Assembly: GCA_044892525.1 (NCBI GenBank)
Contig: CM097885.1
Coordinates: forward strand, 22,632,001 to 22,696,000
Reading direction: 5' to 3'
Length of the DNA stretch: 64,000 bases
From: Schmidtea polychroa
Taxonomy: Eukaryota
Part shown: piece by piece, positions 20,971 through 52,697 of the stretch
Layout: each line of letters begins with the position of its first letter
Position numbering within the stretch: the stretch's first letter is position 1
Program-made: the position numbers and the translations under genes
Notes under the pieces: model-generated
Databases searched by the model: none
The model's input: only the letters and a program-made list of their open reading frames with translations
What the model was told of the DNA's origin: nothing

Positions 20971-21005
20971 TATGAACTTACAATCTTTATTTTCTAACTT
21001 ATTCT

Positions 21006-22514
21006 TTATTTCTTGGACCTCATATTGTCATTTTGCCACTTGTTATATCCGCCTTCTGCTGTTACTGTTAATATTCTGGTTTTAATTTTGCCGGTTTTTG
21101 GGTCTTCGTGTTCCATCATACACTGTACACATGTTCCGCATGTTTTCCTGGATAGCATATCCGCGTTTGTATGGCTTGTTCCTTTCCTGTATTCCATTTT
21201 AATATCCAGGCTGCTTAAATAGTTGATCCATGTCTGGAATTGAGCAGTTATTGGTTTCTTCGTTGTTACCATAAACGTAATAGCTTTATGGTCCGTTCTC
21301 AGTACGAATCTCTTACCATATAAGTAATGGTTGAAATGTTTACAAAAATAGTATATTGCCAATAATTCTTTTCTGGTAATGCAGTATCCTTTTTCGTGGC
21401 TGCTCATCGCATGTGAACCATATGCAATGACATGTTCATGTCCTTTTTCATCCTTTTGCGAAAGAACTGCTCCAATAGTATCGAAGCTCGCGTCTGTGTC
21501 TAATATAAATTCTTTTCTGAAATCTGGAAATACCAATACTGGGGCGGTTATCAATGCTTCTTTCATTTCCCCGAAAGCCTTTTCACACATCTCTGTCCAT
21601 CTTATTTTCTCATTGTTTTTTCCGCATATGCTTTTTAGTGCTCTTGCCTTCTTTGCATAGTCTTTTATGAACCGTCGATAATAGTTACATATACCCAGAA
21701 AGCTCCTCAGATTCTTTACACATTTTGGCTTTTGAAATGATTGTATTGCTTCTATCTTAGTATTATCTGTTTGTATGCCGTCTTTATTTATTATGTGTCC
21801 CAGAAATTTCACTTCTTTTCTAAATATTTGACATTTTTCGGGGTTCAATCTTAGTCCTGCTGTTGCGATCTTCCCTAGGACTTTTCCAAATATGTTATAA
21901 TGGTCTTCTTCTGTCTTTGTGAATATTAGGATGTCGTCTAAATATACCATCACTCCATCTTTCCACAAATCTTTCAATACTTTCGTCATTAATTCTTGAA
22001 ATGTTCCTGGTGCCGCTGCAATACCGAACGGCATCCTGTTAAAACAGAACTGTCCTTCTTTTGTTGAGAATGCTGTTTTCTCTTGAGATTCTTTATCTAA
22101 CTTCACTTGGTAATAAGCATTTCCCAAGTCGATTGAGCTAAAATATCTGGATCCGTGTAGGATGTCTAAAATTTCATCTACATTTGGCATTGGAAATGCT
22201 TGTCTTTCTGTTATCTTGTTTAATTGTCTGAAGTCTAGACAAAGCCTGATGTCTTTTTTCTCTTTCTTCCATACACAAACTAAAGGTGTGTTCCACGGTG
22301 AATTACACTTCCTAATTATTCCGTTGTTTTCTAGATTTTTTATTGCTTCCTCAATCTTGTCTTCCAAATTTATTGGCTGACGTCTCGGTTTAATCATTAT
22401 TGGCTCTCCTTTCGTGATGATCTTATGTTTTCTCAGATTGGTACACCCAATGTCCCATTTATCTGCCATAAAAACATTCTTGTTTGCCTGAAATATTTCT
22501 TTGGTTGAAATCAA
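21006..22514 (-). CDS. pol: Pol: reverse transcriptase + RNase H (no protease domain)
   Basis: RLCLDFRQLN, MPFGIAAAPGTFQ, VYLDDILI, DTDAS, KELLAI, TDHKA, NADMLSR. Confidence 0.93.
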   Translation of the reverse strand: MISTKEIFQANKNVFMADKWDIGCTNLRKHKIITKGEPIMIKPRRQPINLEDKIEEAIKNLENNGIIRKCNSPWNTPLVCVWKKEKKDIRLCLDFRQLNKITERQAFPMPNVDEILDILHGSRYFSSIDLGNAYYQVKLDKESQEKTAFSTKEGQFCFNRMPFGIAAAPGTFQELMTKVLKDLWKDGVMVYLDDILIFTKTEEDHYNIFGKVLGKIATAGLRLNPEKCQIFRKEVKFLGHIINKDGIQTDNTKIEAIQSFQKPKCVKNLRSFLGICNYYRRFIKDYAKKARALKSICGKNNEKIRWTEMCEKAFGEMKEALITAPVLVFPDFRKEFILDTDASFDTIGAVLSQKDEKGHEHVIAYGSHAMSSHEKGYCITRKELLAIYYFCKHFNHYLYGKRFVLRTDHKAITFMVTTKKPITAQFQTWINYLSSLDIKMEYRKGTSHTNADMLSRKTCGTCVQCMMEHEDPKTGKIKTRILTVTAEGGYNKWQNDNMRSKK

Positions 22515-22520
22515 TATTAC

Positions 22521-23642
22521 TTAGTAAATTGCTCCGATCAATGTCCCGTTTGACGGAGCGTGCTCGTTTGGGTCATTCTCCCTGTTATACTCGTCTAGCT
22601 GGCTTGACTGTTTTGTATTCATCATCTCATCATCAGACTCGATAGCTGCAATATCTTTTCTGTTATATTGTTGGTTTCCCCATTGTCTTTGATGTACGTT
22701 CCTTGATTGATACATATCTTCCCTTTGTTGATAGGTATTTCTTTGAATTCTTCCTCCTGACATCTTCCTTTGGTCTCGATCTCTTCCTTGATTTCGTCTT
22801 TCCATATTTGTGTAGCACTCTCTTTCTTTGTGTCCTCGTGCATTGCATCTATGACATTTGATTGTTGGGCATTCTCTTCGTATGTGACCTTCAACACCAC
22901 ATGCATAACATTGAAATCTTCTTTTTATATTACATTCTCTGCTACTGTGTCCCGGTTTTTGACACGTCCAGCATTCTATCACTTTAATTCTTGTCTCTGG
23001 TTTCCATTCGTTGATTTTTCTCTTCGTGGCTCCAACTTGTACTACATCTCTATAAGTTCTTCCCCCAGTTGTAGGTCGTATTGATCTCACCGTGTTTACT
23101 TGTTCAATAACCTTGTTAACTTTTTCTATCTTCTTTATAGTTTCTTTAATTTGTTCCGCCGTTTTGAGATCTTTCATTTCGATTTCTTTCCTGACTTCTT
23201 TATCTTTTACACAATGTGTCAATAAACATTTCTGAATTTCTTCCTCATTCCAAGTGTGTGAGGCCAATTTTTTAGTCATTTTTGATATTTTCTCTATAAA
23301 TATTTCCGCTGATTCGTTACCTTGCTCGTAGTTCAAGGCTTCTCTTAAGTCATCAATCAATGACGTTGGTCGATGAAAAGCTGCTCTTAATTTCTGTTCA
23401 ACGGTTTTACCTTCTGCGGTTTCATATTCTTCAATCAAAGTCCTGTCCAGAAGTGTAATAACTAGTACCATTTGTGTCTTCACTGGTGTCTTCGTTATTT
23501 CAAAGAACCTCTGACATTCTTTGATAAATAATTCGAGGTCATCTCCTCTGTGGAATTTTTCTGGAAGTAATCTTCCAATAAGCAGATCCGTTGGAATGGT
23601 CGCCATGTTAGAAGCTATAACATTTAATTCTTCTGTCATCAA
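22521..23642 (-). CDS. gag: Gag with three CCHC zinc knuckles
   Basis: CWTCQKPGHSSREC, CYACGVEGHIRREC, CHRCNARGHKEREC. Confidence 0.9.
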   Translation of the reverse strand: MMTEELNVIASNMATIPTDLLIGRLLPEKFHRGDDLELFIKECQRFFEITKTPVKTQMVLVITLLDRTLIEEYETAEGKTVEQKLRAAFHRPTSLIDDLREALNYEQGNESAEIFIEKISKMTKKLASHTWNEEEIQKCLLTHCVKDKEVRKEIEMKDLKTAEQIKETIKKIEKVNKVIEQVNTVRSIRPTTGGRTYRDVVQVGATKRKINEWKPETRIKVIECWTCQKPGHSSRECNIKRRFQCYACGVEGHIRRECPTIKCHRCNARGHKERECYTNMERRNQGRDRDQRKMSGGRIQRNTYQQREDMYQSRNVHQRQWGNQQYNRKDIAAIESDDEMMNTKQSSQLDEYNRENDPNEHAPSNGTLIGAIY

Positions 23643-26600
23643 AATAAATTACTAAGACTATTAAATCCAAAATTATATTTCATTAAATCTGATTATATAA
23701 ACAAATATTCTTGGGACATTTTCTAAATTTTAATTTCAACCAAATATCAACATACCATCGCATTCATACTTGAATTTCAATTTTATTAAAGATTATTTTA
23801 TTTTAAAATTTCAATTATCATTTCAATTTTAATATCTTAAAATAATTTAAGTTTCAATTAAAATTTTACAAATTTTAATCATGAACTAATTTAATTTAGT
23901 ATTTTAATTTTAACTCCTCACAAAAACCATTTTTATAAATGACTTTTTTCAAAATATACACTATTTCCATATTCAATATTCTATAAGCAAACAAATATGT
24001 ACAGTGCTTAATAGTTGCACACATACATTTTAGTGGTGCAGTCAAAACCACGGGGCAAATGGAAAATACATCTGGTTCTATCAACATAATTTAAAGTTAA
24101 TTGTGGTTTGAAATTATTTAACTATAAAAAATGTTACGTGAATATGACATAAATTTTGTCTACTTACAGCTAATTCAATTTGAAAATGGTGTAAAATAAT
24201 TTTAGAAACATGTTTAACATGTCGAATTTTCTCATGAATTATGGGTAGGGTTGTCATATTTCCTAAAATTCCAGGAGTTTACAGGAATTCGACCTAGTAA
24301 GAAGCGTACGTCTGGAATTAAGGAATTTTATGATTCGTAGATAATCGAGTTAAAATTATAATTATACTCCACACTTTTTTAGTGTATAAGCAATATTTCT
24401 TGATAATTTTAGGTTACTTATACCGTATTATGCTGAATTTTTTCTGCAATACAACTTCAATTAACAAGAATGTTAACTAAAGCACAGCAAAATTCAGCTG
24501 GAATACAAAAAATTAGCTTAGTAATGAAAAACAACTGAAATAAATCTTTGTTTCATACAGTTTTTTCGGCAATTTTCCAGAATCTCCCGAAAAGTTCAAG
24601 TCGTTTGGTACATTGAGTGATTATTGGCAAATTATGTTACTATTTAACAATTATATAATGAATAAAATAATTTATAAAAGATATTTTAGGCCTTTGAAGA
24701 ATGTTTAAAGTTTATTAGAAACAAAAGTCAGATTTTTCGACTATGAAATAGTTCTCTTCAATCTACTGCTACCAAGAAATACTCATTTTATATAAATTAA
24801 ATTATTAAAATTCTAAATTAAAACATGGAAATTAACCATTAATTATTTACTCAATTTAGTAATTCCAATTTGTAAGTGATATGGTGTTGAAAATATTTTC
24901 TAAAATGCCGAAACATCACAAAACTTGCAGAAATTTTGCCAAAAGCTTAAAATTATATTATTCCCTCAATTATTCGGAACTATTTTTATAACTCCGAAAC
25001 ATATCTCGATTCGATAAATTATTTTTTCAATATTATTAGTTTCTTATCAATAAATTTCTTCCAATATTCAACGATTAGATATCGCAAAATTAAATCATAG
25101 AAAACTAATCAGAAAAAAATGAAAAATATATTTTCATAAAAGAAATATTTTTGTTATAATCACTTAAAATAATTTTATAATAAATCGTCGGTAGCCCAGT
25201 TATTTATAAAAACATAATTCAAATAAACAGGGAAGCTTTATACGCATTGTTGATTAATTGAAAATTTTCGGCCAAAAATAGATTTTTTCATTCAAATATG
25301 AAATTTAGCTGATCTAAAAAACGAAAGAAGAAAATTAAAAGAAAATATTTCTAAAAAATCTTAAATTTCGTATTTCCGTTTAAGATAGAAAATATTTTAA
25401 TTTTTAACTCAACAAAATATTAACTGTTGATCGTAGCACACTTCTATAAACACGCCCATGAACATTTTCAAAACTGGCGTTCAAAGTCGAAATGTTTTTT
25501 TTTGCATAAATCAATGCTTTTAGCCTGAAGTATTTGTATATGATCTTTTCTGAATCAAATAATATATATATATATATATATATAAATACAATTTTCCTTT
25601 AAAAACAAAGCGCAGAGTTATTCCTTTTATATAAATATTTATATTTAACATTTCATACTTACGTACAACACTTTTACCCTGTTTAGTTATCTGGCTAAAC
25701 ACACTAAAAATTAACTTTTCCTTCTAAGTTTATTTTAAAATATTTTTTTTATTTATAAACAATTTTATTTTCTATAGTCTTTTAGAAGTATATAATTTAT
25801 ATTATATTAAATTAAATTAATATGTTTATAAAATATTTAAAAAAAATTTTTTTACTACGAAATAAAGTTTAATTATTGTATTATCATCGGGGCTACGTAA
25901 GTCTATTGGATGTGGAAGGTCATCAAAATTTGATTATACAATGTAACCTTAACAAACTAACACAGTTACATTTAAAGGAAGCACTATTAAATTATAAATT
26001 AACAATAATAAATTTCAAAGTCATACTAAGAAACGAAAAACATAATAGATCAGATAAACGTTTTATGGTGTAAAGTTACTATTATTTTTCAAATTTTATT
26101 TAAAAAACCCATTGAGCAACAAAAATAATTAAAAGAAATTTAAGAATTATATGAAGTAAAATTCAGCAATTCCCAGTAACAAATAAATGAACCTGAAAAA
26201 GAAAATGAATGTCCACCACTGATTTTGAATACGGAAGACCTTAATTGGTTTAAAGATGAATTTGATAATCAGAATGAACTTGTTCAGCGAACTATATCGG
26301 TACTACCATAGGTAAATATGAGCTCTTTAAGACAAATATAATCCCAATATCAGTGATAAAATTGATTAAGACAATTAAGTTATCATTACTCATGTACTGA
26401 CATGAAAGTTTTACCATAATTCAGTCAATGGAAGTATTTATCGATGAAATATATTTATCTATTTGAGATTAGTATGTTTTTGTTTTTCAATAAAATATAG
26501 TTTATACAATTTCAATTGTTATCGTTGATGTATTTTTGCATCACTAGTTTCTTCAACAATATCAAAACCTTTTAGTAAAATGAAAAAATACAAAAAATGC

Positions 26601-29773: not shown

Positions 29774-29960
29774 GATCAAAGAAATATTTGCTCCAGCAGT
29801 CAATGTTTCCACGAAAGCATGGTTACTTGATCTGGCGATTGTTATGAGATTATTGACCAACTCGCATTTGAGCATGTCAACTCCAGTATCGTATGATGTG
29901 AAAGTATTGGAATATTTATCTGGAACAACTTTGATCATTAACTTCTTTCGGTAATCGAAG
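29774..29960 (-). pseudogene. hsp90: Hsp90 N-terminal ATPase-domain pseudogene fragment, downstream part (interrupted by Polinton)
   Basis: KKLMIKVVPDKYSNTFTSYDTGVDMLKCELVNNLITIARSSNHAFVETLTAGANISLI aligns by eye to the Hsp90 segment ELxIxxIP...[44 protein letters not shown]. Confidence 0.85.
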
Positions 29961-30899
29961 AGTAGTGTGTATATATACCCAACCAACACAACCCTCCCAA
30001 CAAAAACATACCTCCATTACGCTTAAACCATTGGAAAAACAACATAAAACCTATGCTTTTATAGTATTTTAACCCCATATTTTAAACAACAACCACCCTT
30101 AATCTTTAAAGCCTCAAACTCAAAAGCTTCAAACTAAAAAGAGAATAGAAAAGAAAATGGCATTATGAAAAAGTTAGAGGGCTATTTGGGATAGGGCTAT
30201 ATACACACTACTGATCGTAATCAAACTCCGGAGTCGATCTTTATCAGATTATTAATTTTAAATTATAAAAATTAAAAAATAAATGAAAAATAGTAAAACT
30301 GCTCTGAGGGGACAGTGGTATTTTTTTTTTCACTGTCCCCTCAACAGTTTTTTTGATCCGGATCATTTCAACCTCTTTCGTTTATCAAATCTCTTCTAAT
30401 ATACAAGCTGGCCAGACTCATACATCAGAATCAATCCGATAATAGCAGCACACCTTATTATTCGCTTCTCGCTCGAATACGATTTCATCGGCGTTTTAAG
30501 TGTGCTGCTCGAAAGTACAAATGAATTCGAAAGTGAATCCGAAAGAGGTCCGAAAACAACTGAGAAATAAATGTGCACATTATGGAATCGATCCGGGGGT
30601 GTTCGAAAGACAGGTGGCGATAATTACCGGTTCGCCACCATCACCCGTTTCAATAATTTTTTTTTCATATTTATGTTTAAAAAATAAAATAAAATAAAAT
30701 AAATAAAATAAATAAAATAAAATAAAATAAAATAAAATATACAACTACTTTATAAATCTAAGATACCCACACTATTATTTTCAAATTTTTAATATTATTT
30801 TATGTTGAAAAAAAACTAACCACAGTTAGGATTTGAACCACCATCCATTTGAACCACTGTGCCAGTCTAGCCCACTGCGCTATCTAGGTTTGGATTTTT
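29961..30899 (+). repeat. Polinton left TIR (~940 bp)
   Basis: Reverse complement of 42275-43200. Confidence 0.95.
30808..30889 (-). ncRNA. tRNA-like Pol III unit A (left TIR copy)
   Basis: Minus strand: A box TAGCGCAGTGG, two GGTTCAAAT B-box motifs, T8 terminator. Confidence 0.6.
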
Positions 30900-31136
30900 C
30901 TCATTTTTTAGACTATAAATAATCGATTCAAGTTCTTTAACTCTTTCCTGTAATTGTTTCATTTTCTTCAATCTTATATCAGCAACATCTACAGCCTTCA
31001 TATAAAAATGTCGATACTTTTCATTATCTACCATCAACTCTTTGATGTATTCTAATGGTTCTTCTTCTCTTCTTTTCATTCTCTTATGTTTAACTTCATT
31101 CAATTCATTTCTCATTCTTTCTTTTAACTCATCCAT
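30867..31136 (-). CDS. Small coiled-coil Polinton protein, unknown function
   Basis: 89-aa charged helical ORF with AAAAATG start context; shares upstream ATATCCAATAAAA motif with polB. Confidence 0.6.
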   Translation of the reverse strand: MDELKERMRNELNEVKHKRMKRREEEPLEYIKELMVDNEKYRHFYMKAVDVADIRLKKMKQLQERVKELESIIYSLKNEKNPNLDSAVG

Positions 31137-31298
31137 TTTTATAAATATTTTTTTATTGGATATATTAATTTTTGGTAGCTTAAGTTAAAACGTTTTTGAT
31201 CTTAAATTTCCAAGAGTTGCCGTTGACCAATCACCTTAAAAATTTGTACAAGTACTAAATCGAGTATGCTGATCAATATTTCGTTAAAAAAAAATTTG

Positions 31299-31378
31299 AA
31301 AAAAAATGACCGAAATGGGATTTGAACCCATTGGTATTGGCAATGCAGTCGAGTGCTATTACCACAAGCTATTAGAGC
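31299..31378 (-). ncRNA. tRNA-like Pol III unit B (tRNA-Cys-like)
   Basis: GCTCTAA-TAGCTTGTGGTAATAGC-A-CTCGA-CTGCATT...ATGGG-TTCAAAT-CCCAT-TTCGGTCA-T8; D and T arms pair, anticodon and acceptor stems are poor. Confidence 0.65.
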
Positions 31379-31540
31379 TATACTCAATATAAAATAAGTT
31401 GTTAATGTGTGACTATTTATTGATGAAATTAATAATTAATTATTCATTTTCTCGACAACTACCACTCAGATCCATCTGAAAATTTAAATATATACTAAAA
31501 TCAGTACGCTGAATCAGATTCCGTTGAAAAAAAAATATCG

Positions 31541-31622
31541 AAAAAAATTGACCAAAATCGAAAATTGAACCCGGTACTCCCGGTGATAAAATTGAAGCCT
31601 ATTCCCACTCCGCTATAATGGC
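31541..31622 (-). ncRNA. tRNA-like Pol III unit C
   Basis: GCCATTA-TAGCGGAGTGG (A box) ... CCGGGTTCAATT (B box) ... GGTCAA-T7; contains internal T4 runs. Confidence 0.5.
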
Positions 31623-31678
31623 TTACATAATATATTTAATTAATCCTATTTTGTGTGTGTAAATTTTAATATATAAAA

Positions 31679-32817
31679 ATGAATCTCTTCAAACATCAAA
31701 CCCTATAGATATTTGTAATGCCAAATTATATTATAAAATCGAATTAGAAATTGAAGCAAACAAAGATATAACCCTAGAAAATAATTTCTTTCCAAATTTA
31801 TTCTCCAACATGAAATTAAAACTAGGATCATCAGAAATTGAAACTGTTTTACATCCAGGAGTATATTCTACAATGTTAAATTTTATTTTGACTGGTTGTG
31901 ATTATAAAAATGAATATGGTGAATTAACAGGCTGGATTCCTGATGTTAATAAAGGAGATTTAGATAAAAATGGTTTAGATATAAATTATGGTTACTATAA
32001 AAGAGCTGAACTTTATAAATCTAAAAAATTTGAAGGTTATTTTGAATTAAAACACTTATTTGGATTCATTCAAAACTATAATCGTATACTTCATAATGTT
32101 TTTATAGAATTAGTTTGTAATAGAGTAGAAGGTGATAAAAGATTGTTCTATGGAGCTGCAGATACAACAGCTAAATTAAAAATATCGACACTTGAATTGC
32201 ATATACCTGAATGGACATTAAATCCACATTCCGAAATCAAACTCCTTGAAAGATTAAATTCCAACAAGTCTATAAATGTAAATTATTTAAATAGAATCTG
32301 TAGTGAATTTAGTATGACAGAGGGTTCAACATATTCTATAAAGGTAGCAAATTTAGCATACCGACCAAGATATATCTTGATTGGATTCAAAGAAGTAGAT
32401 TCATCTTTCCAAAAAAATAACAACTTCTTTATTCAAAAGATTGGAGTTGATAATTTAAAAACAATCCAAATTCAATTAAATAGTTCTTATTATCCAATAA
32501 ATAGAATGGAATTTAATATTGAAAATAATGAAAACATATTCCCATATCTAAATTATATTGAAACATGTTATGATTTTAAAGTTAAACCACAATTAAGTTT
32601 AGAAGATTTCAAAAATTTATATTCTATATTTTGTATAAATGTTTCAGACCAAGATGATCGCCTAGCCATAAATAATGTTGATGTTACACTTCATATAACA
32701 AAGGATTCTAATTTTAAAGCTAAAGTATATACATTAATATTAGAAGAAAAGAAAATAGAAATGAAATTATATGGTGGAAAGATTTTAATAATCGAAAATG
32801 TTAGGGGAGATTCTTAA
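31679..32817 (+). CDS. Polinton major capsid protein (double jelly-roll/hexon-like), N-terminus apparently deleted or frameshifted
   Basis: ITLENNFFPNLFSNMKLKLGSSEIE...PG, LKHLFGF, RPRYILIGF, QIQLNSSYYP, YSIFCINVS resemble Polinton MCPs; upstream AAAAATG at 31679 is out of frame with the ORF. Confidence 0.8.
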
Positions 32818-32834
32818 TATTTTAACATTTTAAA

Positions 32835-34192
32835 ATGTCTCTCTATTGGAGATGTGAAAGTTGTAATTGTCAAGTTACAAGACATCATAAAGCAAGTCAT
32901 CTAAAAACTTAAAAACATATAGGAGGCGATCTACAATCTTCAAAAGTGACATCTTCAATATTAAAACCTTTTACTACAGAAAAATATCCAGGTGAAAGAC
33001 ATTTATTTAAACACAACTATACTGGACCAGGAACAAGATTAGATATTAGATTAGATGAAAATAATAATCCCAAACAAGGAGAAGAACCAATAAATAGAAT
33101 CGACCAAGCAGCTTTAAAACATGATATTGCTTACAATTCAGAAGATCTTAGAGATAGACATGTTGCAGATGTTAATTTAATACATGATTTAAATAGTATC
33201 CAAAATCCATCAACCCAAGAAAAGATTCAAAGAGCTCTAGTTAAATTAGCAATGAAAGGTAAGATTTTCATAGGTGCTAGTTTACCAAGGATGGCAAAAA
33301 ATGTTGCTAATAAAAAGATTATTGAACAAGCAGATGCTGAAAGATCCCTCGAGAATATATCCAAGACTAGTTTATTAACCCCAACAGAATCACAAATAAA
33401 ATATGCCAACGAATTACACCATGAATTTAGAAAAAATAAAAAATATTTAAAAGTTCAAGTACATGAAAAAGATCAAACATGGTCTGCAGATTTAGTCTTT
33501 ATGCCAACCAAATCATCAGACCCTGAAAAATATAAAATAATTTTAACTGTAATAGATTTATATACAAGATTTGCCTTTGCAAGGTGTTTAGAAAATAAAA
33601 CAGGATATTCCATTACAGAAGCATTTGAAAATATATTTGAAGAACATCAAAGAATTCCAAAATATTTATGGAGTGATAAAGGAACAGAATTTTATAACAA
33701 AGTTTTTACAAAGTTTTTAAATGAAAATGATATTAAATTATATTCAACAGAAAACGAAGGAAAAGCAGTTGTGGTTGAAAGATTAAATAGAACATTAAAA
33801 AATAAAATGTGGAAATATTTTACGGCTATTGGAAAACAAAAATGGAACAATGAATTGTTACAAAAGATTGTAAATGAATATAATAATGATGTACATAGTT
33901 CTATAAAATCAACACCTTTAAATGCTTCCATAAATCCTGAAACCATTAAAGTGGTAAATATTGAAAATGATGTTATTGAAAAACCAAAGTTTAAAATTGG
34001 TGACCGAGTAAGAATATTTAAATATAAAAATAAATTTGAAAAAGGATTCACAGCAAAATGGACAAATGAAATTTTTATTATAAATAAAATAAATTATACA
34101 ACTCCAATAACATATAGCATCATTGATTTAAATAATGAAAAAAAATATTAGGTAGATTTTATAATAATGAGTTACAGAAAACAGATTTCTAA
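32835..34192 (+). pseudogene. Zn finger + parvovirus-type PLA2 + retroviral-like (rve) integrase fusion
   Basis: ATG 32835 CESCNC..HKASH, in-frame TAA at 32910; NYTGPGT...INRIDQAALKHDIAY (PLA2); WSADLVFM, VIDLYTRF, WSDKGTEF, VVERLNRTLK (DDE); KFKIGDRVRI...FEKGFTAKWT; A-run frameshift near 34141. Confidence 0.9.
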
Positions 34193-34590
34193 AACAAACT
34201 TTTCCATATTTCAGCTTCTTCTCTATCCAAATAAATATAATTATATTTTTCTCTCCAATGATTATCAACAAACATATCAAACATATTCTTATCAGGTTCA
34301 ACATTTGAAAATAAATCATTATAAATCATATTCTTATCACGGCGATCTGATTTAAAAAATATAAAACAATTGGAATTATTTCTTATTGAATTTTTATCTA
34401 AAGCATAATATGTTTGAGATATATAAATAACATTACAATTATTATGTCTTCCTCTTGTAAAGTAACTCTTTTGGATCTCTTGATTTTTCATGTTAACAAC
34501 ATCATCAAATATAACTAGATTCTTTTTATCTTTAGGAAGTAAATCACAATGTAAAACATCTTCAGGTTTATTAGAGAATAAAACTTGAAT
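34189..34590 (-). pseudogene. A32/FtsK-like packaging ATPase, C-terminal half only
   Basis: KNLVIFDDV (Walker B), FTRGRHNNCNVIYISQTYY, IRNNSN; no Walker A upstream of ~34590. Confidence 0.85.
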
Positions 34591-34644
34591 CGTTAAGAAA
34601 GAAATGTTAAGAAAGAAGAAATTGATAAATATTTAAACTTAATT

Positions 34645-34907
34645 AATACATGGTAGTTCTAAAGCAAAACATATTCAAGATTTAAAGAATTATTTAAATA
34701 AAAATGAAAGGGGTTATGTTGTTACAGAGGGTAAGGAGATGCCTGTGGCTGCAAACCCAATCAATCTTTTTATTGAATTAAGAAAACTATTAGCAGCTAA
34801 AAAAGCAGGACATAATAATTTAGATTCTGATATTTTAAAGATTTCTAAAGATTTGTTAAAACAAGGAATAATTTCAAAAGATAAATTTAATAAGTATATA
34901 AAATGAC
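34645..34907 (+). pseudogene. C-terminal remnant of a conserved Polinton/adintovirus virion-core-type protein (gasderminX-like)
   Basis: Manual translation ANPINLFIELRKLLAAKKAGHNNLDSDILKISKDLLKQGIISK resembles the DPNELxxRLxLLxASKxAGNN...LxxxGII motif as recalled; no start codon. Confidence 0.55.
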
Positions 34908-35390
34908 TCCTTCAATATTAGATTTTTTAAAAACATTTGGAATAAATGCAAAAACAAATTTTGATTTAAAAGATTATGCAGATTATTTAAATTTAAAAAT
35001 AAAAATATTAATGAATAATGAATTGAAAGGTCCAAAGGTCAAAGGTCAAAGGGTCACTCCAAAGAATATAATAATCAATTATCAAAATTCAAATGAAAAA
35101 GGATCTCATTGGGTTTGTATATATATATGGACGAAGTCCCAATCTACTTTGATTCTTTTGGGATTAAACCCACTAAAGAAGTTGAAGACTATCTGTCCGG
35201 AGTAAGCTCGAAGAGAGACTATACTTTTAATTCTTTACAAGTTCAACCTAATAATACTAAAATATGTGATATTTTAAGCTTATATGTTTTGTATAGATTG
35301 AATAAATCTCAAGGGACTCTGTCCAAAGGGGACTACTGTTTCACTTCCTTAATCCAAGAAATTTATAATGATTTAAAATCTCTACTATAA
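34903..35390 (+). pseudogene. Adenain-like cysteine protease, frameshifted in an (AT)n run near 35120
   Basis: IIIN...GSHWVC, then YFDSFG..P and QVQPNNTKICD in the next frame. Confidence 0.85.
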
Positions 35391-35393
35391 GAA

Positions 35394-36132
35394 ATGGAAG
35401 ATAATTTAAAAAAAATGGTAAACATAATGTCAGATAAATATTCAAGAACTTTATCTATAAATTCAAAAGAATCAGACTTTACTATAAATTTTGAAGATTC
35501 AATAAAATTAGATCAAAATTTAAATTATGAATTAGGTCTATTATGGTTTTGTGCTTATAATACTATTTTTAATATAACTAAAGATATTAACACATTTAGT
35601 TATGTAAGCCCCCCCCCAAAACGGAGTATAACATAATAATAATAGAACCCGGGGCTTATGAGATAAAAATTTAAATAATATACTTTCTAAAAAAACAAAT
35701 GGAGCTATTGAAATTAAAATAGATTTACCAACTTCAAAATGTATAATGACTTTAAAGAATATAGGACTTAGGTTTCAAAATAATAGTTTCTTTAGAACAA
35801 TTTTAGGATTTACACAAAACCATTATACCACACCTGAAGTTACATCAGAAAATATTATAAAAATAATAAATACAAACACAATAAATATTCATTGCGATTG
35901 TATAACAGGTTCTTATAATAATGGTAAACAAAGTAATATTTTATATTCCTTTCCCTCAAACACAGTTCCTATGGGATATAAAATAGTTGAAAGAATGAAT
36001 CCTCCAAATTATTTACCTTTATGTAGAAAATATATAATGGATATTAATTTTAAAATTCTTAACCAAGAAGGAGAATTGATTGATTTTAATGGAGAAGAGA
36101 TTTCAATGTATTTACATTTGAAACAGGTTTGA
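35394..36132 (+). pseudogene. Minor capsid protein (penton-like single jelly-roll), frameshifted near 35610-35670
   Basis: SDFTINFEDSIKLD..YELGL, PGAYEI, INIHCDCITGSYNNGKQSNILYSF, ILNQEGELIDFNGEEISMYLHLK. Confidence 0.82.
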
Positions 36133-36156
36133 AGATTCATTTTAAATTATTAATAA

Positions 36157-37146
36157 ATGAGTTCTTATATTCCTTGTAATAGAGGTGGTGGAACAATAAA
36201 AACAGGGTTTAATACAGAAGAAATATTAACTTTAACAGAAAATAAATATATTAATGAAAGAGGTGATTCAATGAAGGGAGATTTAAATTTAAATGGACAC
36301 AAGATAAAAGATTTATCTTTACCAATTGATGAAGGTGATGCTGCTAATAAAAATTATACTGATTTAACAACAACAAGAATTGAAAGTTCATTAACAACAA
36401 AAATTGATTCAATGGAATCAAAGCTTAATAATATCGAACAACGATTTAATGATAAATTTGACAAGTTACAAAGTCTGTTAACTGAACAAGTTGTAAAGTT
36501 AAATACTAGTATATTAAATTCTAAAGATAAACAAATTATGAATACTAAATTTAATACAATATATAATATAATAAATGAGATGATTACATCATTTAATAAA
36601 AGACTTTCAAATTTAGAGTCTCATACAACACACATTAACACCACACATAGTATTAGAAAAAGAGCTGCTGAATTAGAACAGAATAAAACATTATTACCCC
36701 ATACATATAAACATTTTATAGAACCAACTTTAATAACAACAAATAGTAAAGAATGGAGTGTTTTTATGGCTGTAAAGATTATTGATCCTTATTTCTTTTT
36801 ATTTGATGATGATAATGAAAGAATGAAATGGTTTGTGAAATGTGATTATAATAGTAAGCTTGAAAAGGGTGATGTTATAATTACTGCTTATGATTTACCA
36901 CACGGAGATTGGTATGTTAATACTCATTCACATGGACTACATAAAGTTAAAAGTAAGAATATTATTTTTAAAAGCACACTTGTACAATATATAGATTTAA
37001 TATTTTATGAAAAAAAGGTTGATGTTGATGAAGTTCGTAAAGCATTGATGGAATTGTATAAAGATATTCTCTCAACAAGAGTTTCTTTTGATATCCGAGT
37101 ATTGGTGCCAGATGGTGCTCAGAAGAATAAAGTCTTATTTTTTTAA
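36157..37146 (+). CDS. Putative fibre/spike-like protein
   Basis: GDSMKGDLNLNGHKIKDL...DAANKNYTD fibre-type repeat, long coiled coil, unrelated C-terminal globular region; follows the penton gene. Confidence 0.6.
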   Translation: MSSYIPCNRGGGTIKTGFNTEEILTLTENKYINERGDSMKGDLNLNGHKIKDLSLPIDEGDAANKNYTDLTTTRIESSLTTKIDSMESKLNNIEQRFNDKFDKLQSLLTEQVVKLNTSILNSKDKQIMNTKFNTIYNIINEMITSFNKRLSNLESHTTHINTTHSIRKRAAELEQNKTLLPHTYKHFIEPTLITTNSKEWSVFMAVKIIDPYFFLFDDDNERMKWFVKCDYNSKLEKGDVIITAYDLPHGDWYVNTHSHGLHKVKSKNIIFKSTLVQYIDLIFYEKKVDVDEVRKALMELYKDILSTRVSFDIRVLVPDGAQKNKVLFF

Positions 37147-37154
37147 TTATTAAA

Positions 37155-37733
37155 ATGGAAGAAGTAAGAGAAGAAAAAATTTACCCAGAATTGTCATCAA
37201 GATATTATTCTTCCAAGGCTCCCTCAGCTCCCACAGAACTTGAAATTATGAGAGTAAAAGAATTTAAGTCAGAAACCTTACATTTACAAGATTTATTAAA
37301 GCATTATAAAAAAATTAAAAATAGATGGAATAAAGGGAATACAGTTTTAAAAGTTATAGGTTATTCTTTAGGATTTGCATCTGCAATATTAACAGTTATT
37401 TTACCTATAACTTTACCAGTTTTAACAATTGCACCTGTAATACTTGGAAGTATTTCAGTAGCTGATGGTTTCCTAACTGAAATAGTTTCACTATCTTATA
37501 CTTCTAAAAAGAAAAGTTTATATCGTGAAGTTTGTTTATCAATAGAATTAGGAATCTCTAAATTATTTTTATTTCAATTAAAAGCTTTGGAAGATGGAAT
37601 CTTAACTGATGATGAAATAATGAAATCAAATCAAATAATACAAGATATTAAAAATAATATTAATAGATTGAAAAGTGCTAATGTTATAACTAATAAAAAA
37701 ATTAAACGAGAGAAATGGTTAAAGAATTCTTAA
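37155..37733 (+). CDS. Polinton membrane protein with hydrophobic hairpin
   Basis: IYPEL..APSAP N-terminus; hydrophobic VIGYSLGFASAILTVILPITLPVLTIAPVILGSISVA; ALEDGILTDDE. Confidence 0.7.
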   Translation: MEEVREEKIYPELSSRYYSSKAPSAPTELEIMRVKEFKSETLHLQDLLKHYKKIKNRWNKGNTVLKVIGYSLGFASAILTVILPITLPVLTIAPVILGSISVADGFLTEIVSLSYTSKKKSLYREVCLSIELGISKLFLFQLKALEDGILTDDEIMKSNQIIQDIKNNINRLKSANVITNKKIKREKWLKNS

Positions 37734-37844
37734 AATTATAAATATATAAAATGGATGCATTTTTAAAAAAAGTAGATCAGGTTGCTATAGTTGCTTAAAT
37801 TAATTGTCGACATTTTATTATTAAAAAATTAAATATCGTTGGTT

Positions 37845-40800
37845 TCAGTTATGGTTGAAAGCCAACCTATGAATCATTAATTTATGATCTTTAAATTCTT
37901 TATCACTTAGACCTTTTATATATTCAGAATCAGTATTAAAATATTTAAGTTCTAAACATATAGGATTAAAAACTTGAGAATATAAAGGCTTCTCGATTTC
38001 TCTCTCGGGATAAATAATTTCAACATTATAAATATCAAGATCGGTAATATTTGTATCATATAACTTATTCAACTTTTCTAGATTTTTTATTATCGGTATT
38101 AAAATTTTTCCAATAGGTAGAGTTGTCTTTAAATCACTTAGGATGAATCTTTTATCATCATAATTTGATAATGATACTTTTTGAGATTCTATCAAGTGAA
38201 TATCATGGTTTTCACTTTTAAGTTGATGTATTTCATCAATTTTATCTTTATGATTTGGATTCAATGTATCTATATAATCTTGATGAGAAAGATTCTTTGC
38301 AACTGATTTCTGTATTCCTTTACATCTGTTATCCTTTACAGGTTTTTCTTCTTGTCCCTCTGGTCCTTTAGGAAATATAGGATATCTATGTGTAATGGTT
38401 TCTTCTGTTTCTGGAGTTTTAAATATAAATGATCTAGTTATAAATTCAGGGTTTCTAAATGTTTCGTATGAATATTGTTTAGCACGAATAAATATTCCAT
38501 TTTCTATAGGAGTAAAAGGTTTTTCATCTTTAAACGAAAATAATTCTCCAGATGAATTTATTAAATTTGAAAGTATAGGATTTTCGGCTATATCTCTTTG
38601 TAAATCATGAGTTCTTATTGTTAAAAACATTGAATCTGTATCCATTGCATGCATTGATATATTAGAACCATATATAGGTTGTAAGATGTTATAATATGTT
38701 TCATACATTTGTAATTTTGAAAGTTCTAAAATTGAAAACCCTATAAATATTGGTTTGTTGTATGTTTTCTCAAAATTCTTTAGTTCTATTGCAGTAAGAC
38801 TTTCAGAAAATACTTGTGCGTTTTTAAATGTAGGCTTTCCTAGCATACGATTATAACGCTTAATGTCTTTGGTAGTATTTGTTAGGAGTTCAATATGAGT
38901 ATATTTGTCTACATTTTCCATTGTCTTCCCAAAGACTGAATTGTTTAAAAGTTTATAATTATTATCTTTAAAAAGGTTACCTTCTCTTTTTGCAATGTTT
39001 CGACATCTAATGTTCTCTTCGATAAAAGCTTTCATGAATGGAGCTTGTTTAAATCTTATGACACTATGAACTTTTTTTAATATCATTCCTCGTGAGAGAT
39101 AAAATTGGAGGAGTCTATAGTGACAAAGATAATAAGTTCGATCTGTTTGATCACAAAGAAGTTTCATTGTTGGAGGTTTATCTTGTGAGATTTGCCATTC
39201 AGAAAGTTCGTTGATATCAATCTTTCTTCTTACAGGAGCTAAAGGAAAATATCTTGTTCCTGATTTTATATCATCTGGATATAATAAGTCACATTCTACA
39301 AAGTAACCTATTGGAAAATCTTTAGGAGTTGAAAGTATTTCTTTCATAAGGTCTTTTAAGGATTCTTCTGAGGAATCTTCAGAGTATATTTCATGAAAGT
39401 CACTCATTGGTAAATATTGAGTCATAATTCCTGAATATAAAGCTGTTGCATCTATATAAAGTATAAATATAGGATTTTTCATTGTTTCTAATAATTCTTT
39501 TAATTCCTCATTGTTAATTTTCATATATGGATCATCAGGGTGTTTAGAGAGTCTTCGGCTAGTAGTTATTGCATTTCTAGCTTTTATTTCTCTATTCCCC
39601 ATTACTGAAGAGACTCCTCCTCTAATGTTTGTTTTAATTTGATTAAACATATCGAGGTTAGTTAAAAGATCTATAATTTTATCAGATTCTTCTATATTTG
39701 AAGTCCAAATGGTATATAATAAAGTATCCCAAGCTAAAGAGGGTGCTGTTATATAATTGTAAGGTTTAAGAACAAAAGATTTTGTAAATTCTTCAAAGCA
39801 ATCTGCTAGAATATAAACATCCAAGGATAAATACATGTTGGTATATTCTCCTAAAGTTTTACACTTGAATAATTCCCACATTTTATTTGCTCGAGAATAT
39901 TCTTGATCTGTAATATGATATTTTTGAAGTTGTGAATAGAAATCTTTTTGGCTAGGAAGACTTGTTTCATTATATCTTTCAAATGAATCAACATAGTCAT
40001 AAGGATATATTCCTTTTGCTAAGCATGTAGAATATTCTTCTAGAGGAATATTATTTTTTTCCAAGAATTCTCGAGTGATTTTAAAATTTTCTGGTTTCAT
40101 TGTTTTTGCTACTGCATCTAGAGACATTTGGAGAAAGTTTAACGAGTCTATAAATTTTAATTTTCCATATTCAACTGATTTATATTTTTCCTTTGTAAGT
40201 CCTATAACTTTGAAAGAGTTTTTAGCATTTTCTGCTAATTGTTTAATAAATAGATGTATGTCATAACCAAAAAGATTATGAAATATAACAGGTACAAATT
40301 TAGGAGTATGACAATTAAGATTACAATTTTTATGAGCTGCTCCTCGATAATTATTTTCCTTTTTTAAATGATCATGATCGAGGACTTTTATATTCGGAGA
40401 CTCTTCAAATGGTTGTTTACACATCCAACAGTTGGAAGTGTTTTCATATTCTTGTTGTTGTTGATTAGAAATATTTTGAGGATAGTTTGTTTTTAATACT
40501 TTAAATATTTCATGTTCTAGATCATTTATACTTTTAGTAAAATGATTCAAGACTTCTGTTTCTGAAATTCCTCGAAATGTATATTCTCTAGATTCTATGA
40601 GTTCAGGATAATTACTTTTAAATAATAATTTATAAGCAGATGGTAATTGTTTAGTTTTTTTAACACTATTAGGTTTATTCCTTTTTCTTAGAAAGGCTTT
40701 CATCCTCTCTGGTTTCATCTTCTCTCCTGAGGAGTTCCAGGAATCCATGAGTTTATTTTTTTCTATTATTTTTAAATATTGTTTAACCAAATCTTGTTTA

Positions 40801-42185
40801 CGATTTATAGATTCAAAGTCCCCATAAAGCACTCCTACTGTTTGTAGTAAATTTGAAAAATTTTTAAAATACATCTTGGGGTTATTAGGCATTTTAATTA
40901 AAGCTGGATCATCTTTTTCACAAAATCTTGTATGTTTAATCATAGAGTTTTTAGTTGTTGAATAATGAAAACATCTTTTACATGTTCCTCCTCCACTAGT
41001 TGGATTCTCTGGTGATGTAAAAGCTTGAAAGTTTTTTATTAAAATATAATGTTGATTATTTTGTTGTTCCAAGATTAAAAGATATATCTCCCTAGTGTTA
41101 TCCTGGGGTTCGTTATCTCTAACTTCATAATCTGAAATATAAATTGGAATAATTTCTCTGCTATTAACATGTTTCCCTTTAACACGTTCATAAATATTAA
41201 TTTTAAGATTATTTAAACTTTCAAATTTTGGAATGTCTTCTAGTTTTATTGGATGTTTGAATCCTTTGGGAAATATTAATTCATTTTCATATTGTTTGTA
41301 TTTTGAAACTCTTTGAGGGTTTGATTCTTGAGGGTGTAAATGTGCAAGTATTGACCAGATGAAACATTTGTTATCATTATTCTGTATGTTTATAACATTT
41401 TTAGATTTAAAGGGTGTAGGAATATAAGATTTAGGATTAGGTGGTAATCCTCTCCAATAATCAATCACTAAAGTTTGGAAAGAGTTGAATACTAAGTTTG
41501 AATCTCCTAATTCATTTTCAACCTCTTCTTGTTTTGCTTCTACTGCTTGAATTATTTCTTTGATGGTTTTATCAAATCCTTTAGTTGAAAATAAATATTT
41601 AAAGGGTATTCCAATTTCAACATCTAAAGGTGTTGTCTTTTCTTCTGCTCCTCGCCAGTATTTTGCTTTGATTATAATTTTATATTTTATAACATTATAC
41701 CTTGTCGGTTTATAATTTTTTAAAGCTTCAGTGAAAGAATTTTTAATATTTTTTTTATTTTTATTTATATATTCTCCAGGAGTTATAGGTCCATTGATTT
41801 CTAATTGAAATTCATCTACATGATTAAAATCATCCCAGTTATATTTTTCTCTTTCAACATGATCAGGTTCTCCTTCTGAATGACATTCCTCATCGTCAGA
41901 ATTTTGTTTTTTATTTTTACATTCTTTTATATGTTCTAAATAATAGAAATTTACTTTTGTTGAAAAGTTACAGTGAGAACATGTAAATATTTCTCTATTT
42001 TTCCCGATACAATTTTCAAAATGTTTATTATATCCAGAATGTAGAAATCTTCCTTTACATTTAGGAAAAACTTTTGAATTTGTATCATTAAGATTGTTTT
42101 CTTTTAATAAATGAGCTTTCGATTTTAAGTGAGAAATTAATCCAGTTTTATTTTTAAAAACTTTATTACAAATATTACAATTCAT
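37845..42185 (-). CDS. polB: Protein-primed family B DNA polymerase with N-terminal C2H2 fingers and endonuclease VII-like insert
   Basis: Intact 1446 aa; YGDFES, FHNLFGYDIH, FIDSLNF, KGIYPYDY, YIDATALY, KLLNNSVFGKTMEN, MDTDS; CWMC...DHDH...YRGAAHKNCNL. Confidence 0.96.
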   Translation of the reverse strand: MNCNICNKVFKNKTGLISHLKSKAHLLKENNLNDTNSKVFPKCKGRFLHSGYNKHFENCIGKNREIFTCSHCNFSTKVNFYYLEHIKECKNKKQNSDDEECHSEGEPDHVEREKYNWDDFNHVDEFQLEINGPITPGEYINKNKKNIKNSFTEALKNYKPTRYNVIKYKIIIKAKYWRGAEEKTTPLDVEIGIPFKYLFSTKGFDKTIKEIIQAVEAKQEEVENELGDSNLVFNSFQTLVIDYWRGLPPNPKSYIPTPFKSKNVINIQNNDNKCFIWSILAHLHPQESNPQRVSKYKQYENELIFPKGFKHPIKLEDIPKFESLNNLKINIYERVKGKHVNSREIIPIYISDYEVRDNEPQDNTREIYLLILEQQNNQHYILIKNFQAFTSPENPTSGGGTCKRCFHYSTTKNSMIKHTRFCEKDDPALIKMPNNPKMYFKNFSNLLQTVGVLYGDFESINRKQDLVKQYLKIIEKNKLMDSWNSSGEKMKPERMKAFLRKRNKPNSVKKTKQLPSAYKLLFKSNYPELIESREYTFRGISETEVLNHFTKSINDLEHEIFKVLKTNYPQNISNQQQQEYENTSNCWMCKQPFEESPNIKVLDHDHLKKENNYRGAAHKNCNLNCHTPKFVPVIFHNLFGYDIHLFIKQLAENAKNSFKVIGLTKEKYKSVEYGKLKFIDSLNFLQMSLDAVAKTMKPENFKITREFLEKNNIPLEEYSTCLAKGIYPYDYVDSFERYNETSLPSQKDFYSQLQKYHITDQEYSRANKMWELFKCKTLGEYTNMYLSLDVYILADCFEEFTKSFVLKPYNYITAPSLAWDTLLYTIWTSNIEESDKIIDLLTNLDMFNQIKTNIRGGVSSVMGNREIKARNAITTSRRLSKHPDDPYMKINNEELKELLETMKNPIFILYIDATALYSGIMTQYLPMSDFHEIYSEDSSEESLKDLMKEILSTPKDFPIGYFVECDLLYPDDIKSGTRYFPLAPVRRKIDINELSEWQISQDKPPTMKLLCDQTDRTYYLCHYRLLQFYLSRGMILKKVHSVIRFKQAPFMKAFIEENIRCRNIAKREGNLFKDNNYKLLNNSVFGKTMENVDKYTHIELLTNTTKDIKRYNRMLGKPTFKNAQVFSESLTAIELKNFEKTYNKPIFIGFSILELSKLQMYETYYNILQPIYGSNISMHAMDTDSMFLTIRTHDLQRDIAENPILSNLINSSGELFSFKDEKPFTPIENGIFIRAKQYSYETFRNPEFITRSFIFKTPETEETITHRYPIFPKGPEGQEEKPVKDNRCKGIQKSVAKNLSHQDYIDTLNPNHKDKIDEIHQLKSENHDIHLIESQKVSLSNYDDKRFILSDLKTTLPIGKILIPIIKNLEKLNKLYDTNITDLDIYNVEIIYPEREIEKPLYSQVFNPICLELKYFNTDSEYIKGLSDKEFKDHKLMIHRLAFNHN

Positions 42186-42274
42186 TTTTAGAAAAAAAAT
42201 TTTTATTGGATATCCTGTTTTGATTTTTTATGTTTTTATATTTATTTTCATAATGTGACAGTATAAAAAATAAC

Positions 42275-43200
42275 AAAAATCCAAACCTAGATAGCGCAGT
42301 GGGCTAGACTGGCACCGTGGTTCAAATGGATAGCGGTTCAAATCCTAACTGTGGTTAGTTTTTTTTCAACATAAAATAATATTAAAAATTTGAAAATAAT
42401 AGTGTGGGTATCTTAGATTTATAAAGTAGTTGTATATTTTATTTTATTTTATTTATTTTATTAATTATTTTATTTTTAAACATAAATATGAAAAAAAAAT
42501 TATTGAAACGGGTGATGGTGGCGAACCGGTAATTATCGCCACCAGTCTTTCGAACACCCCCGGATCGATTCTTTAATGTGTACATTTATTTCTCAGTTGT
42601 TTTCGGACCTCTTTCGGATTCACTTTCGAATTCATTTGTACTTTCGAGCAGCACACTTAAAACGCCGATGAAATCGTATTCGAGCGAGAAGCGAATAATA
42701 AGGTGTGCTGCTATTATCGGATTGATTCTGATGTATGAGTCTGGCCAGCTTGTATATTAGAAGAGATTTGATAAACGAAAGAGGTTGAAATGATCCGGAT
42801 CAAAAAAACTGTTGAGGGGACAGTGAAAAAAAAAAAAAAATACCACTGTCCCCTCAGAGCAGTTTTACTATTTTTCATTTATTTTTTAATTTTTATAATT
42901 TAAAATTAATAATCTGATAAAGATCGACTCCGGAGTTTGATTACGATCAGTAGTGTGTATATAGCCCTATCCCAAATAGCCCTCTAACTTTTTCATAATG
43001 CCATTTTCTTTTCTATTCTCTTTTTAGTTTGAAGCTTTTGAGTTTGAGGCTTTAAAGATTAAGGGTGGTTGTTGTTTAAAATATGGGGTTAAAATACTAT
43101 AAAAGCATAGGTTTTATGTTGTTTTTCCAATGGTTTAAGCGTAATGGAGGTATGTTTTTGTTGGGAGGGTTGTGTTGGTTGGGTATATATACACACTACT
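42275..43200 (-). repeat. Polinton right TIR (~926 bp)
   Basis: Reverse complement of 29961-30899. Confidence 0.95.
42285..42366 (+). ncRNA. tRNA-like Pol III unit A (right TIR copy), divergent from polB
   Basis: A box TAGCGCAGTGG 42292-42302; GGTTCAAAT 42319-42327; GGTTCAAATCC 42335-42345; T8 42359-42366. Confidence 0.6.
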
Positions 43201-43298
43201 TCGAAGACATATGGGTCAGTCCAGCTGATACGGAAAATTTCTTTGGTCGAATAGAAGGTGTCGATGACAAAGGTTTCAGCTTCTCGAATGATTGCCAT
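43201..43298 (-). pseudogene. hsp90: Hsp90 pseudogene fragment, upstream part
   Basis: MAIIREAETFVIDTFYSTKEIFRISWTDPYVF resembles Hsp90 ETF...IINTFYSNKEIF...SLTDP with internal deletions; reads in frame into 29954 once one TSD copy is removed. Confidence 0.8.
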
Positions 43299-52400: not shown

Positions 52401-52697
52401 TTGTTTTGTGATGTTGTATTAGTATTTTCTAATATTTGTTTGTTTTTGCAATCCAGGATTGTGATATAGTACAAAATTAATTCCCCTCTTAGCATCGTCT
52501 TCTTTTAATTAATTTTTAAATTTTCTTCTGTATTCTTAAATTTCGATTTCTTTATCTATTTTTCAATTTTTTGTAATTTTCTATAGTAATTTATTACTAT
52601 ATAGAATTACTCTATATAGTTTTATTACTTTATATGGGATATTGCAAATCGTAATTACAAGTAGGAAATTACAAATAAAAATTAACGCCATACTACA
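49496..52697 (-). mobile_element. Old Ty3/Gypsy element lacking PBS, gag and protease
   Basis: Diverged LTRs 49496-49756 and 52460-52697; PPT AAAGGGGGAAG; fragmented RT (FSKIDLQKAYHQI, VYLDDIL), RNase H (NIAADALSR) and integrase (HTDVVGPL, ITDQCRQFES, SNGKVERFH). Confidence 0.9.

Follow-up and report, generated by a model that had tools for sequence, protein, structure and literature searches.

A candidate structured RNA polymerase III gene and putative tRNA-like promoter units in the terminal inverted repeats of a planarian Polinton

The 64,000-nucleotide stretch of Schmidtea polychroa DNA analyzed here (GenBank assembly GCA_044892525.1, contig CM097885.1, forward-strand positions 22,632,001 to 22,696,000; hereafter the window, whose first letter is position 1) contains a 13.2-kb Polinton/Maverick element (29961..43200), bounded by terminal inverted repeats (TIRs) of approximately 950 bp. 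Each TIR carries a candidate gene for a long structured RNA (352 nt in the left copy) with the layout of an internal RNA polymerase III (Pol III) promoter, situated 162 nt downstream of a short tRNA-like unit (U1 in the left TIR, U4 in the right). A sequence-only reading of this DNA had described U1, U4 and two further units, U2 and U3, and had proposed all four as analogues of adenovirus virus-associated (VA) RNAs, but had missed the long segment. The type-2 promoter layout that it described inside the Polinton holds, and our comparisons suggest that the VA idea survives only in the longer TIR segment.

In the left TIR, the candidate gene occupies 30295..30646 on the minus strand, and its mirror image lies at 42510..42866 on the plus strand of the right TIR. 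Judged against the general A- and B-box consensus, it has an A box (30627..30637, minus strand), 9 of whose 11 alignment columns are invariant among six variants, as compared to 152/356 columns overall, followed by a B-box-like motif of the GATCGA type (30584..30594, minus strand; 5/9 columns invariant). The segment closes with a GC-rich hairpin followed by TTTT (30295..30347, minus strand), a candidate terminator. A 61-nt hairpin of pre-microRNA (pre-miRNA)-like size (30382..30442, minus strand) has inner arms that are conserved in sequence (11/14 and 12/14 columns invariant, versus the same 152/356) and outer arms that carry compensatory changes, and several more stems accompany these two hairpins.

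The 352-nt segment folds with a z-score of -7.2, and none of 100 shuffled sequences folded as well. Nine variants, which did not include two truncated copies (L085 and L087), all fold at z-scores between -4.6 and -9.5; eight measure 342-393 nt, and the ninth, a deleted form, 269 nt. For the alignment we retained six of the nine (68-96% pairwise identity), leaving out two near-duplicates of the window family and the variant with a large deletion. The consensus fold of these six reached an alifold value of -70.5, versus -16.1 ± 3.5 in 60 column shuffles, with 475 of 505 cells paired. Two-sided changes occurred in 17 of the 88 pairs, as compared to a mean of 4.7 and a maximum of 10 in shuffles, and 1-5 in controls with slid partners; covariation thus appears to lend strong support to the long RNA. 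In all six variants, the box-bearing strand folds better than its complement, by 7-26 kcal/mol, and holds 13-18 G-U pairs, which favors an RNA over DNA hairpins, while indels that are not multiples of three exclude a conserved protein. From this layout and fold, the long RNA is likely to be transcribed by Pol III.

Several observations weigh against this interpretation. The six variants are related, so that the 17 two-sided changes cannot be counted as that many separate events, and the alignment used for scoring the structure is also the one that yielded it, with no tree correction. The B box departs from the consensus in two of the six variants. In the window family a T4 occurs within the long RNA at position 94, and one variant (L091) carries five internal T4-T7 runs; three of the six variants have no internal T4, a property shared by only 2.4% of the 345-nt windows of the element, but this avoidance is weak when measured against dinucleotide shuffles (P 0.03-0.6). 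In L085, L087 and L090 the long RNA gene is truncated or deleted, L092 has no U1, and both are missing from the examined end of L070 and from the end of L097. The module is therefore not required at every Polinton end. All of the evidence, moreover, comes from one genome.

An Rfam scan of the long RNA brought no family to its cut-off, and VA RNA (RF00102) was not among its 20 weak matches. Origin from 7SL was rejected, as Rfam gave no signal recognition particle (SRP) match, and so was self-targeting by the long hairpin, since no match longer than 11 nt exists elsewhere in the element. The hairpin pattern found no viral contig and a single metagenome record, an unrelated chance match; capsid searches of viral contigs gave no match, and when three distant capsid proteins served as queries against the genome, the main family alone came back.

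We then turn to the short units. All four were found where the earlier reading had placed them, each with an A box, a B box and a T7-8 run: U1 at 30808..30889, U2 at 31299..31378 and U3 at 31541..31622 (all on the minus strand), and U4 at 42285..42366 on the plus strand. A pattern of A box, B box and T4 occurs at exactly these four places in the 64 kb, as compared to a mean of 0.11 and a maximum of 2 in 100 order-2 Markov simulations, although its rarity is somewhat overstated because the pattern was composed with the units already known. Genome-wide, the A- and B-box pattern gave 7,891 matches, a figure that includes those host tRNA genes that fit it, versus 11 for a reversed control.

The four units are real but have two origins. 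The previous reading counted three units and a fourth copy in the right TIR; all are present, but U1 itself lies inside the left TIR (29961..30914), whose arms I1-I3 are 95-100% complementary to the right TIR (42260..43200), and U1 and U4 are therefore one unit in two mirror copies rather than independent ones. The unit ends in T8 in its U1 form and has a body that is unstructured and not conserved across families. In sister families with TIRs 70-80% identical to these, it recurs with an identical A box, an identical B box and a T5-8 run, whereas the bodies are unrelated, some of them being A/C-rich and unstructured. Eight natural U1-type variants retain the A box, GGTTCAAAT and the T5-8 run, and their joint fold reaches an alifold value of only -0.7 kcal/mol. 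The unit is tandemly duplicated in two of eight subfamily copies and in L082.

The U1-type boxes are thus kept at a domain edge irrespective of the RNA body, a layout that agrees with that of tRNA-gene (tDNA) or TFIIIC barriers. Boxes and terminator appear to be selected and the RNA not, which is the pattern expected of a tDNA-type platform. We conclude, from this conservation pattern, that U1/U4 represents a putative promoter platform and not a VA-like RNA. The earlier suggestion that only promoter and terminator are kept is accordingly borne out for U1-type units across families, but not for U2 and U3; its alternative idea of a TFIIIC/tDNA insulator gives the best fit for U1/U4, whose boxes and T-run outlast body turnover. 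A barrier role for U1 is a tentative proposal, which we judge to have slightly less than an even chance. Among 29 close copies, boxes were not clearly better kept than flanks, a comparison of low power given the low variation, and T4 avoidance in U1 bodies was not significant given base composition.

None of the four units is a functional tRNA gene: A and B boxes at tRNA-like spacing and a T-run are present, but paired acceptor and anticodon stems are not. In line with the earlier observation that no unit forms a clean cloverleaf, ARAGORN returned no tRNA, and the Rfam tRNA model scored only U2. Its 23 bits fall below the cut-off of 29, as had been expected of a pseudo-tRNA, and in the Rfam alignment its acceptor and anticodon pairs are broken. 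Relative to shuffles, U1 (z = 0.08), U3 (z = 0.32) and U4 (z = -0.17) show no excess of structure, while U2 stands at z = -2.8. The odd A box of U2 reflects the loss of one base private to the window copy, since the extra A is present in 29/29 other copies. We could not assign U2 to a parent tRNA: among tRNA-Cys, -Lys and -Arg, the only ones compared, tRNA-Cys (45/72) and tRNA-Lys (46) are equally alike, and the flanks do not match the Cys array. The tRNA genes of the host are arranged in extended tandem arrays (L031-L066), with periods of 424 bp for Lys, 278 bp for Arg and 281 bp for Cys. Downstream of the host Cys gene no T run exceeds four, so that in this species a T4 run may act as a Pol III terminator.

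U2 and U3 belong to a 496-bp cassette (31172..31667, minus strand) that the Polinton has in common with the host ribosomal DNA (rDNA) intergenic spacer. Both are degenerate and lie in paralogous 243-bp modules, which are homologous over their full length, flanks included: the boxes are identical at 17/22 positions, the middle at 19/33 and the downstream flank at 43/60, with a flank alignment score of 58 that none of 1000 shuffles reached. U3 bears three internal T4 runs. The cassette is optional within the family; subfamily copies selected with a different capsid query lack the whole 31172-31682 block in all eight cases, so that absence of units from family copies, which the earlier reading had named as counter-evidence, is observed in part, for U2/U3.

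18S genes were located, and four rDNA contigs were examined. The spacer upstream of one 18S gene matches 31667-31172 at 95% identity and contains U3 together with three U2 units in tandem, and the same array is present in all four contigs. At 32-36 bits, the three spacer copies of U2 exceed the cut-off of the Rfam tRNA model. The match begins and ends at the junctions of presence and absence in the Polinton, the left junction shows a 6-nt microhomology, and approximately 170 nt past the junction the spacer is followed by a satellite with 83% identity in the module. These three features favor capture of the cassette from the rDNA spacer by the Polinton, a direction that we regard as probable.

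Among the first 100 of 1,295 junction matches, 89 continue past the junction in the manner of the window copy and 11 in that of the spacer. These were the only two continuations in that sample, and no dispersed short interspersed element (SINE) with target duplications of its own, another finding that the sequence-only reading had considered fatal, was seen there. Four of the 11 spacer-type places were fetched, two being spacer pieces and two the ends of another Polinton family, which carries the cassette, whole or truncated, immediately inside its terminal hairpin. A third Polinton lineage holds an older U2 module (87-88% identical) just inside its terminal hairpin, and the ends L094 and L097 carry the cassette at other positions. 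The converse idea, that the spacer segment is an old Polinton end, was not supported: the subterminal likeness of L097 and L098 is marginal (equalled in 53 and 78 of 2000 shuffles) and falls below the 95th percentile of AT-matched windows.

The spacer array was also observed in its own right. It comprises five tandem units of the tRNA-like A/B-box type (three U2, U3 and one more; L084 2997-4040, also in L088, L089 and L095), which are antisense to the rRNA and lie 3-4 kb upstream of 18S. It is flanked by degenerate inverted repeats (approximately 69% alike) and 166-bp subrepeats (L084 1868-2209 and 4208-4691); the inverted repeats are possibly those of an old TIR element. A macrosatellite with a 1.25-kb unit (L081, contig C1 147000-148400) includes a sequence homologous to the U2 module at 83-84% identity, and its match to the spacer extends for 462 nt.

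Assembled contigs from four runs, which are only presumed to represent RNA, were set aside and not used as evidence of expression, because the depth of contigs is no guide to the ranking of parts, to strand or to ends, TIRs are more numerous than internal genes, and U2/U3 sequence could come from spacer transcripts. X2 and X7 gave pieces over 30531-30640 and 30348-30531, X1 and X2 contributed to the U1 bin and X1 to U2, and X10 gave none; the bins of the long RNA had the greatest summed depth.

Different explanations of the short units can be weighed against these data. A role for 75-80-nt RNAs from U1-U4 as VA-like decoys or tRNA mimics in their own right, for instance as La, Dicer or tRNA-fragment sinks, is distinctly improbable: U1-type variants share neither a fold nor a body sequence, U1, U3 and U4 fold like shuffles, and U2/U3 are optional and shared with the rDNA spacer, U3 being further interrupted by its T4 runs. 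What speaks for such RNAs is the fixed distance of the terminator in 8/8 U1-type variants, which would matter only if Pol III transcribes them, as well as the D and T arms kept by U2, the tRNA-like scores of its spacer copies and the thousands of genomic pattern matches, host tRNAs included. The short units could otherwise be neutral passengers, U2/U3 captured by chance from an abundant rDNA spacer and U1 in an older event, all spread by amplification of the element. The microhomology at the left cassette junction, the eight subfamily copies without a cassette, the unclear difference between boxes and flanks among 29 copies, and a U2-U3 identity in the boxes (17/22) set beside that of the downstream flank (43/60) agree with this proposal. 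It does not explain why U1-type boxes and T-run outlast complete turnover of the body, why the cassette occupies different positions in three Polinton lineages, or the covarying long RNA, and we consider it unlikely for the units as a whole; for U2/U3 taken alone it is a serious possibility, if still short of an even chance.

The long segment, in turn, might consist of single-stranded DNA structures serving TIR replication, integration or packaging, its A and B motifs binding TFIIIC only or being coincidental, with no RNA made. Its position in the TIR near the terminal palindrome suits this role, and DNA hairpins would covary too; yet the box strand is favored in every variant, G-U pairs are common, A box, B box and final T4 are ordered and spaced as in a Pol III gene, the terminal hairpin of replication lies farther out as an element of its own, and ends devoid of the segment exist, all of which makes such a function improbable. 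A tRNA- or 7SL-derived SINE, nested in an ancestral TIR and without function for the Polinton, is less probable again, and indeed very much so. The segment has an internal A/B promoter and A-rich tracts near its 3' end, as such a SINE would, and a 7SL head exists in another Polinton relative of this genome; however, the segment shows no SRP or tRNA match, its compensatory changes imply selection on structure, and all sampled divergent copies with enough context, including three loci, lie within Polinton-derived DNA (a sample, rather than a genome-wide count).

The interpretation that we prefer is that each TIR forms a two-part module for host Pol III, directed outward. Host TFIIIC would bind both the U1 and the long-RNA promoters. 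U1/U4 would recruit TFIIIC, TFIIIB and Pol III, being retained for its promoter and terminator and not for its RNA, and would most likely serve the inner TIR edge as a barrier in chromatin or as a loading site, either keeping that edge open against silencing by histone H3 lysine 9 methylation guided by PIWI-interacting RNAs (piRNAs), or loading Pol III for the neighboring gene. The second internal promoter, 162 nt downstream, would drive a multi-hairpin RNA of approximately 350 nt that ends at the TTTT after the GC-rich hairpin, and that could be produced from both ends of free or integrated genomes. Its long stems may occupy or feed host Dicer and Argonaute, as a decoy or as a substrate for the double-stranded-RNA machinery. 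U2 and U3 would be an extra tDNA-type pair that has passed between the Polinton and the host rDNA spacer, most likely out of the spacer, and that offers more promoter platform and is dispensable.

Published work offers partial precedent. Planarian Polintons are described as piRNA/SMEDWI-2 targets that are repressed by SMEDWI-2 (PMC8532177). A transcribed tDNA acts as a heterochromatin barrier that requires TFIIIC and Pol III (PMC2040200), and in fission yeast a chromatin domain is delimited by inverted repeats containing B boxes (PMC7474672). The latter source tells against a simple barrier, as these B-box repeats favor heterochromatin inside the domain rather than block it. We put the complete model, with U1 as barrier or loading unit, a long Pol III RNA and a spacer-derived U2/U3 pair, at about an even chance. 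That the long RNA serves as a decoy or miRNA source is a suggestion from its predicted fold that falls just short of this. More doubtful is the full proposal of a VA-type anti-silencing system, in which the multi-hairpin Pol III RNA of the TIRs would jam or feed Dicer/Argonaute from behind tDNA barriers refreshed from the rDNA spacer array, which possibly also address the element to the nucleolus.

When compared to known systems, the long RNA resembles adenovirus VA RNA I/II in its internal type-2 promoter layout, high structure and oligo-T end, as well as in coming from a related lineage of protein-primed type-B DNA polymerase (pPolB) and jelly-roll capsid. This likeness is one of sequence layout: the RNA is 352 nt long rather than the approximately 160 of VA RNA, sits in both TIRs and does not match the VA family model or any other in Rfam, while U1-U4 lack VA-like structure altogether. 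PKR, the best-known VA target, is known only from vertebrates. VA RNAs, which are Pol III products, also saturate Dicer (PMC4378190). The same paper describes the murine gammaherpesvirus 68 (MHV68) tRNA-miRNA-encoded RNAs (TMERs), in which a tRNA-like unit likewise stands beside pre-miRNA-sized hairpins ending in poly-T; in the Polinton, with its invertebrate host, U1 has a T8 of its own 162 nt upstream of the second promoter, and the long RNA has its own boxes, so that the two are not a co-transcribed chimera of the TMER type. The 61-nt hairpin under a Pol III promoter layout is reminiscent, in structure only, of the Pol III primary miRNAs of bovine leukemia virus (BLV) and foamy viruses, and the foamy-virus cassettes also lie in terminal repeats; the long RNA, if made, would work similarly to the Epstein-Barr virus-encoded RNAs (EBERs) (both PMC4378190). 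By analogy, it would thus act like VA RNA or the retroviral Pol III primary miRNAs without belonging to those families.

U1/U4 finds its closest counterparts in the fission-yeast barriers (cen1 tDNA-Ala; IR-L/IR-R), where A/B or B boxes also lie at domain edges and in inverted repeats; these are host chromosomal rather than borne by a mobile element, and IR-L/IR-R, which are occupied by TFIIIC but not by Pol III, promote silencing within their domain (PMC2040200 and PMC7474672). Degenerate tRNA heads with A and B boxes in thousands of copies are typical of tRNA-derived SINEs as well, but no free insertions were seen in our sample, the copies lying within Polintons or the rDNA spacer.

The assignment of the element to the Polintons, made in the earlier reading, is confirmed by its long TIRs, (AGT)2 ends, coding genes and 6-bp target-site duplication (29955-29960 and 43201-43206). 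The AGTAGT termini agree with Maverick ends as given in PMC8097293. The gene set, with all three families above the Pfam cut-off, comprises a double-jelly-roll capsid gene (31810..32817, plus strand; PF21738), a retroviral-type rve integrase (33252..34151, plus strand; PF00665, E = 2.2e-12) and a pPolB (37845..42185, minus strand; PF03175, E = 1.3e-14). The capsid of the window copy has 335 amino acids and a shortened start, versus mostly 431-433 in other copies, and approximately 150 nt that these possess at the start of the gene are missing (31682-31810). Open reading frames (ORFs) at 34189-36132 are short pieces, and a packaging ATPase or adenain-type protease gave no Pfam match over cut-off, the region 34189-35390 holding only such pieces. 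An 89-amino-acid ORF between the cassette and U1 (30867..31136, minus strand), whose 3' end overlaps U1, fell into no family found; its product is charged and probably coiled-coil, and the ORF is present in some subfamily copies and absent from others.

The family is large and young: the genome holds 2,936 first-look candidates for the capsid gene, 120 of which were scored and are 96-100% identical, and 2,276 for the unit region, of which 40 were scored. The outermost 200-250 bp of the TIR (29961-30212 in the window, and the ends of L067, L070, L073, L094 and L097) form a palindrome with AGTAGT and ACTACT as its limits and an interior that is very different among subfamilies; in many cases a small hairpin stands before it. 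A Polinton relative of the same genome contains a match to the 7SL head (RF00017, 30.4 bits, E = 3.5e-06; L100 157-200, in contig C1 134300-134800), which by sequence would be the second fragment of a Pol III gene borne by such elements. None of the 12 ORFs scanned in the Polinton of the window encodes TBP, a TFIIIB subunit. The window also includes two long terminal repeat (LTR) retroelements (19635-23905 and about 49491-52697), one with identical 300-bp LTRs and gag, reverse transcriptase/RNase H and integrase ORFs, the other older and fragmented.

In the literature searched, which left most subscription papers, repeat-database entries and supplements outside it, none of the titles and abstract openings listed concerned a non-coding RNA of a Polinton, and we found no adintovirus with a VA RNA and nothing relevant on tRNA-like units in an rDNA spacer; in a vertebrate Maverick survey, the terms tRNA, miRNA and noncoding are absent (PMC8097293). 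The cassette reveals that degenerate tRNA-like Pol III units stand as an array in an animal rDNA spacer, in exchange with a mobile element. The long RNA candidate would extend the known viral Pol III non-coding RNAs to a Polinton, and a TIR RNA with covariation and a promoter layout, in a family with some 2,900 capsid-gene candidates, offers a concrete answer to how Polintons could blunt control by piRNAs and RNA interference (RNAi). It is a possible forerunner of adenovirus VA RNA; if the VA-type anti-silencing system is real, Pol III counter-defence RNAs would be older than adenoviruses in this lineage, and would have been aimed at RNAi and piRNAs rather than at PKR.

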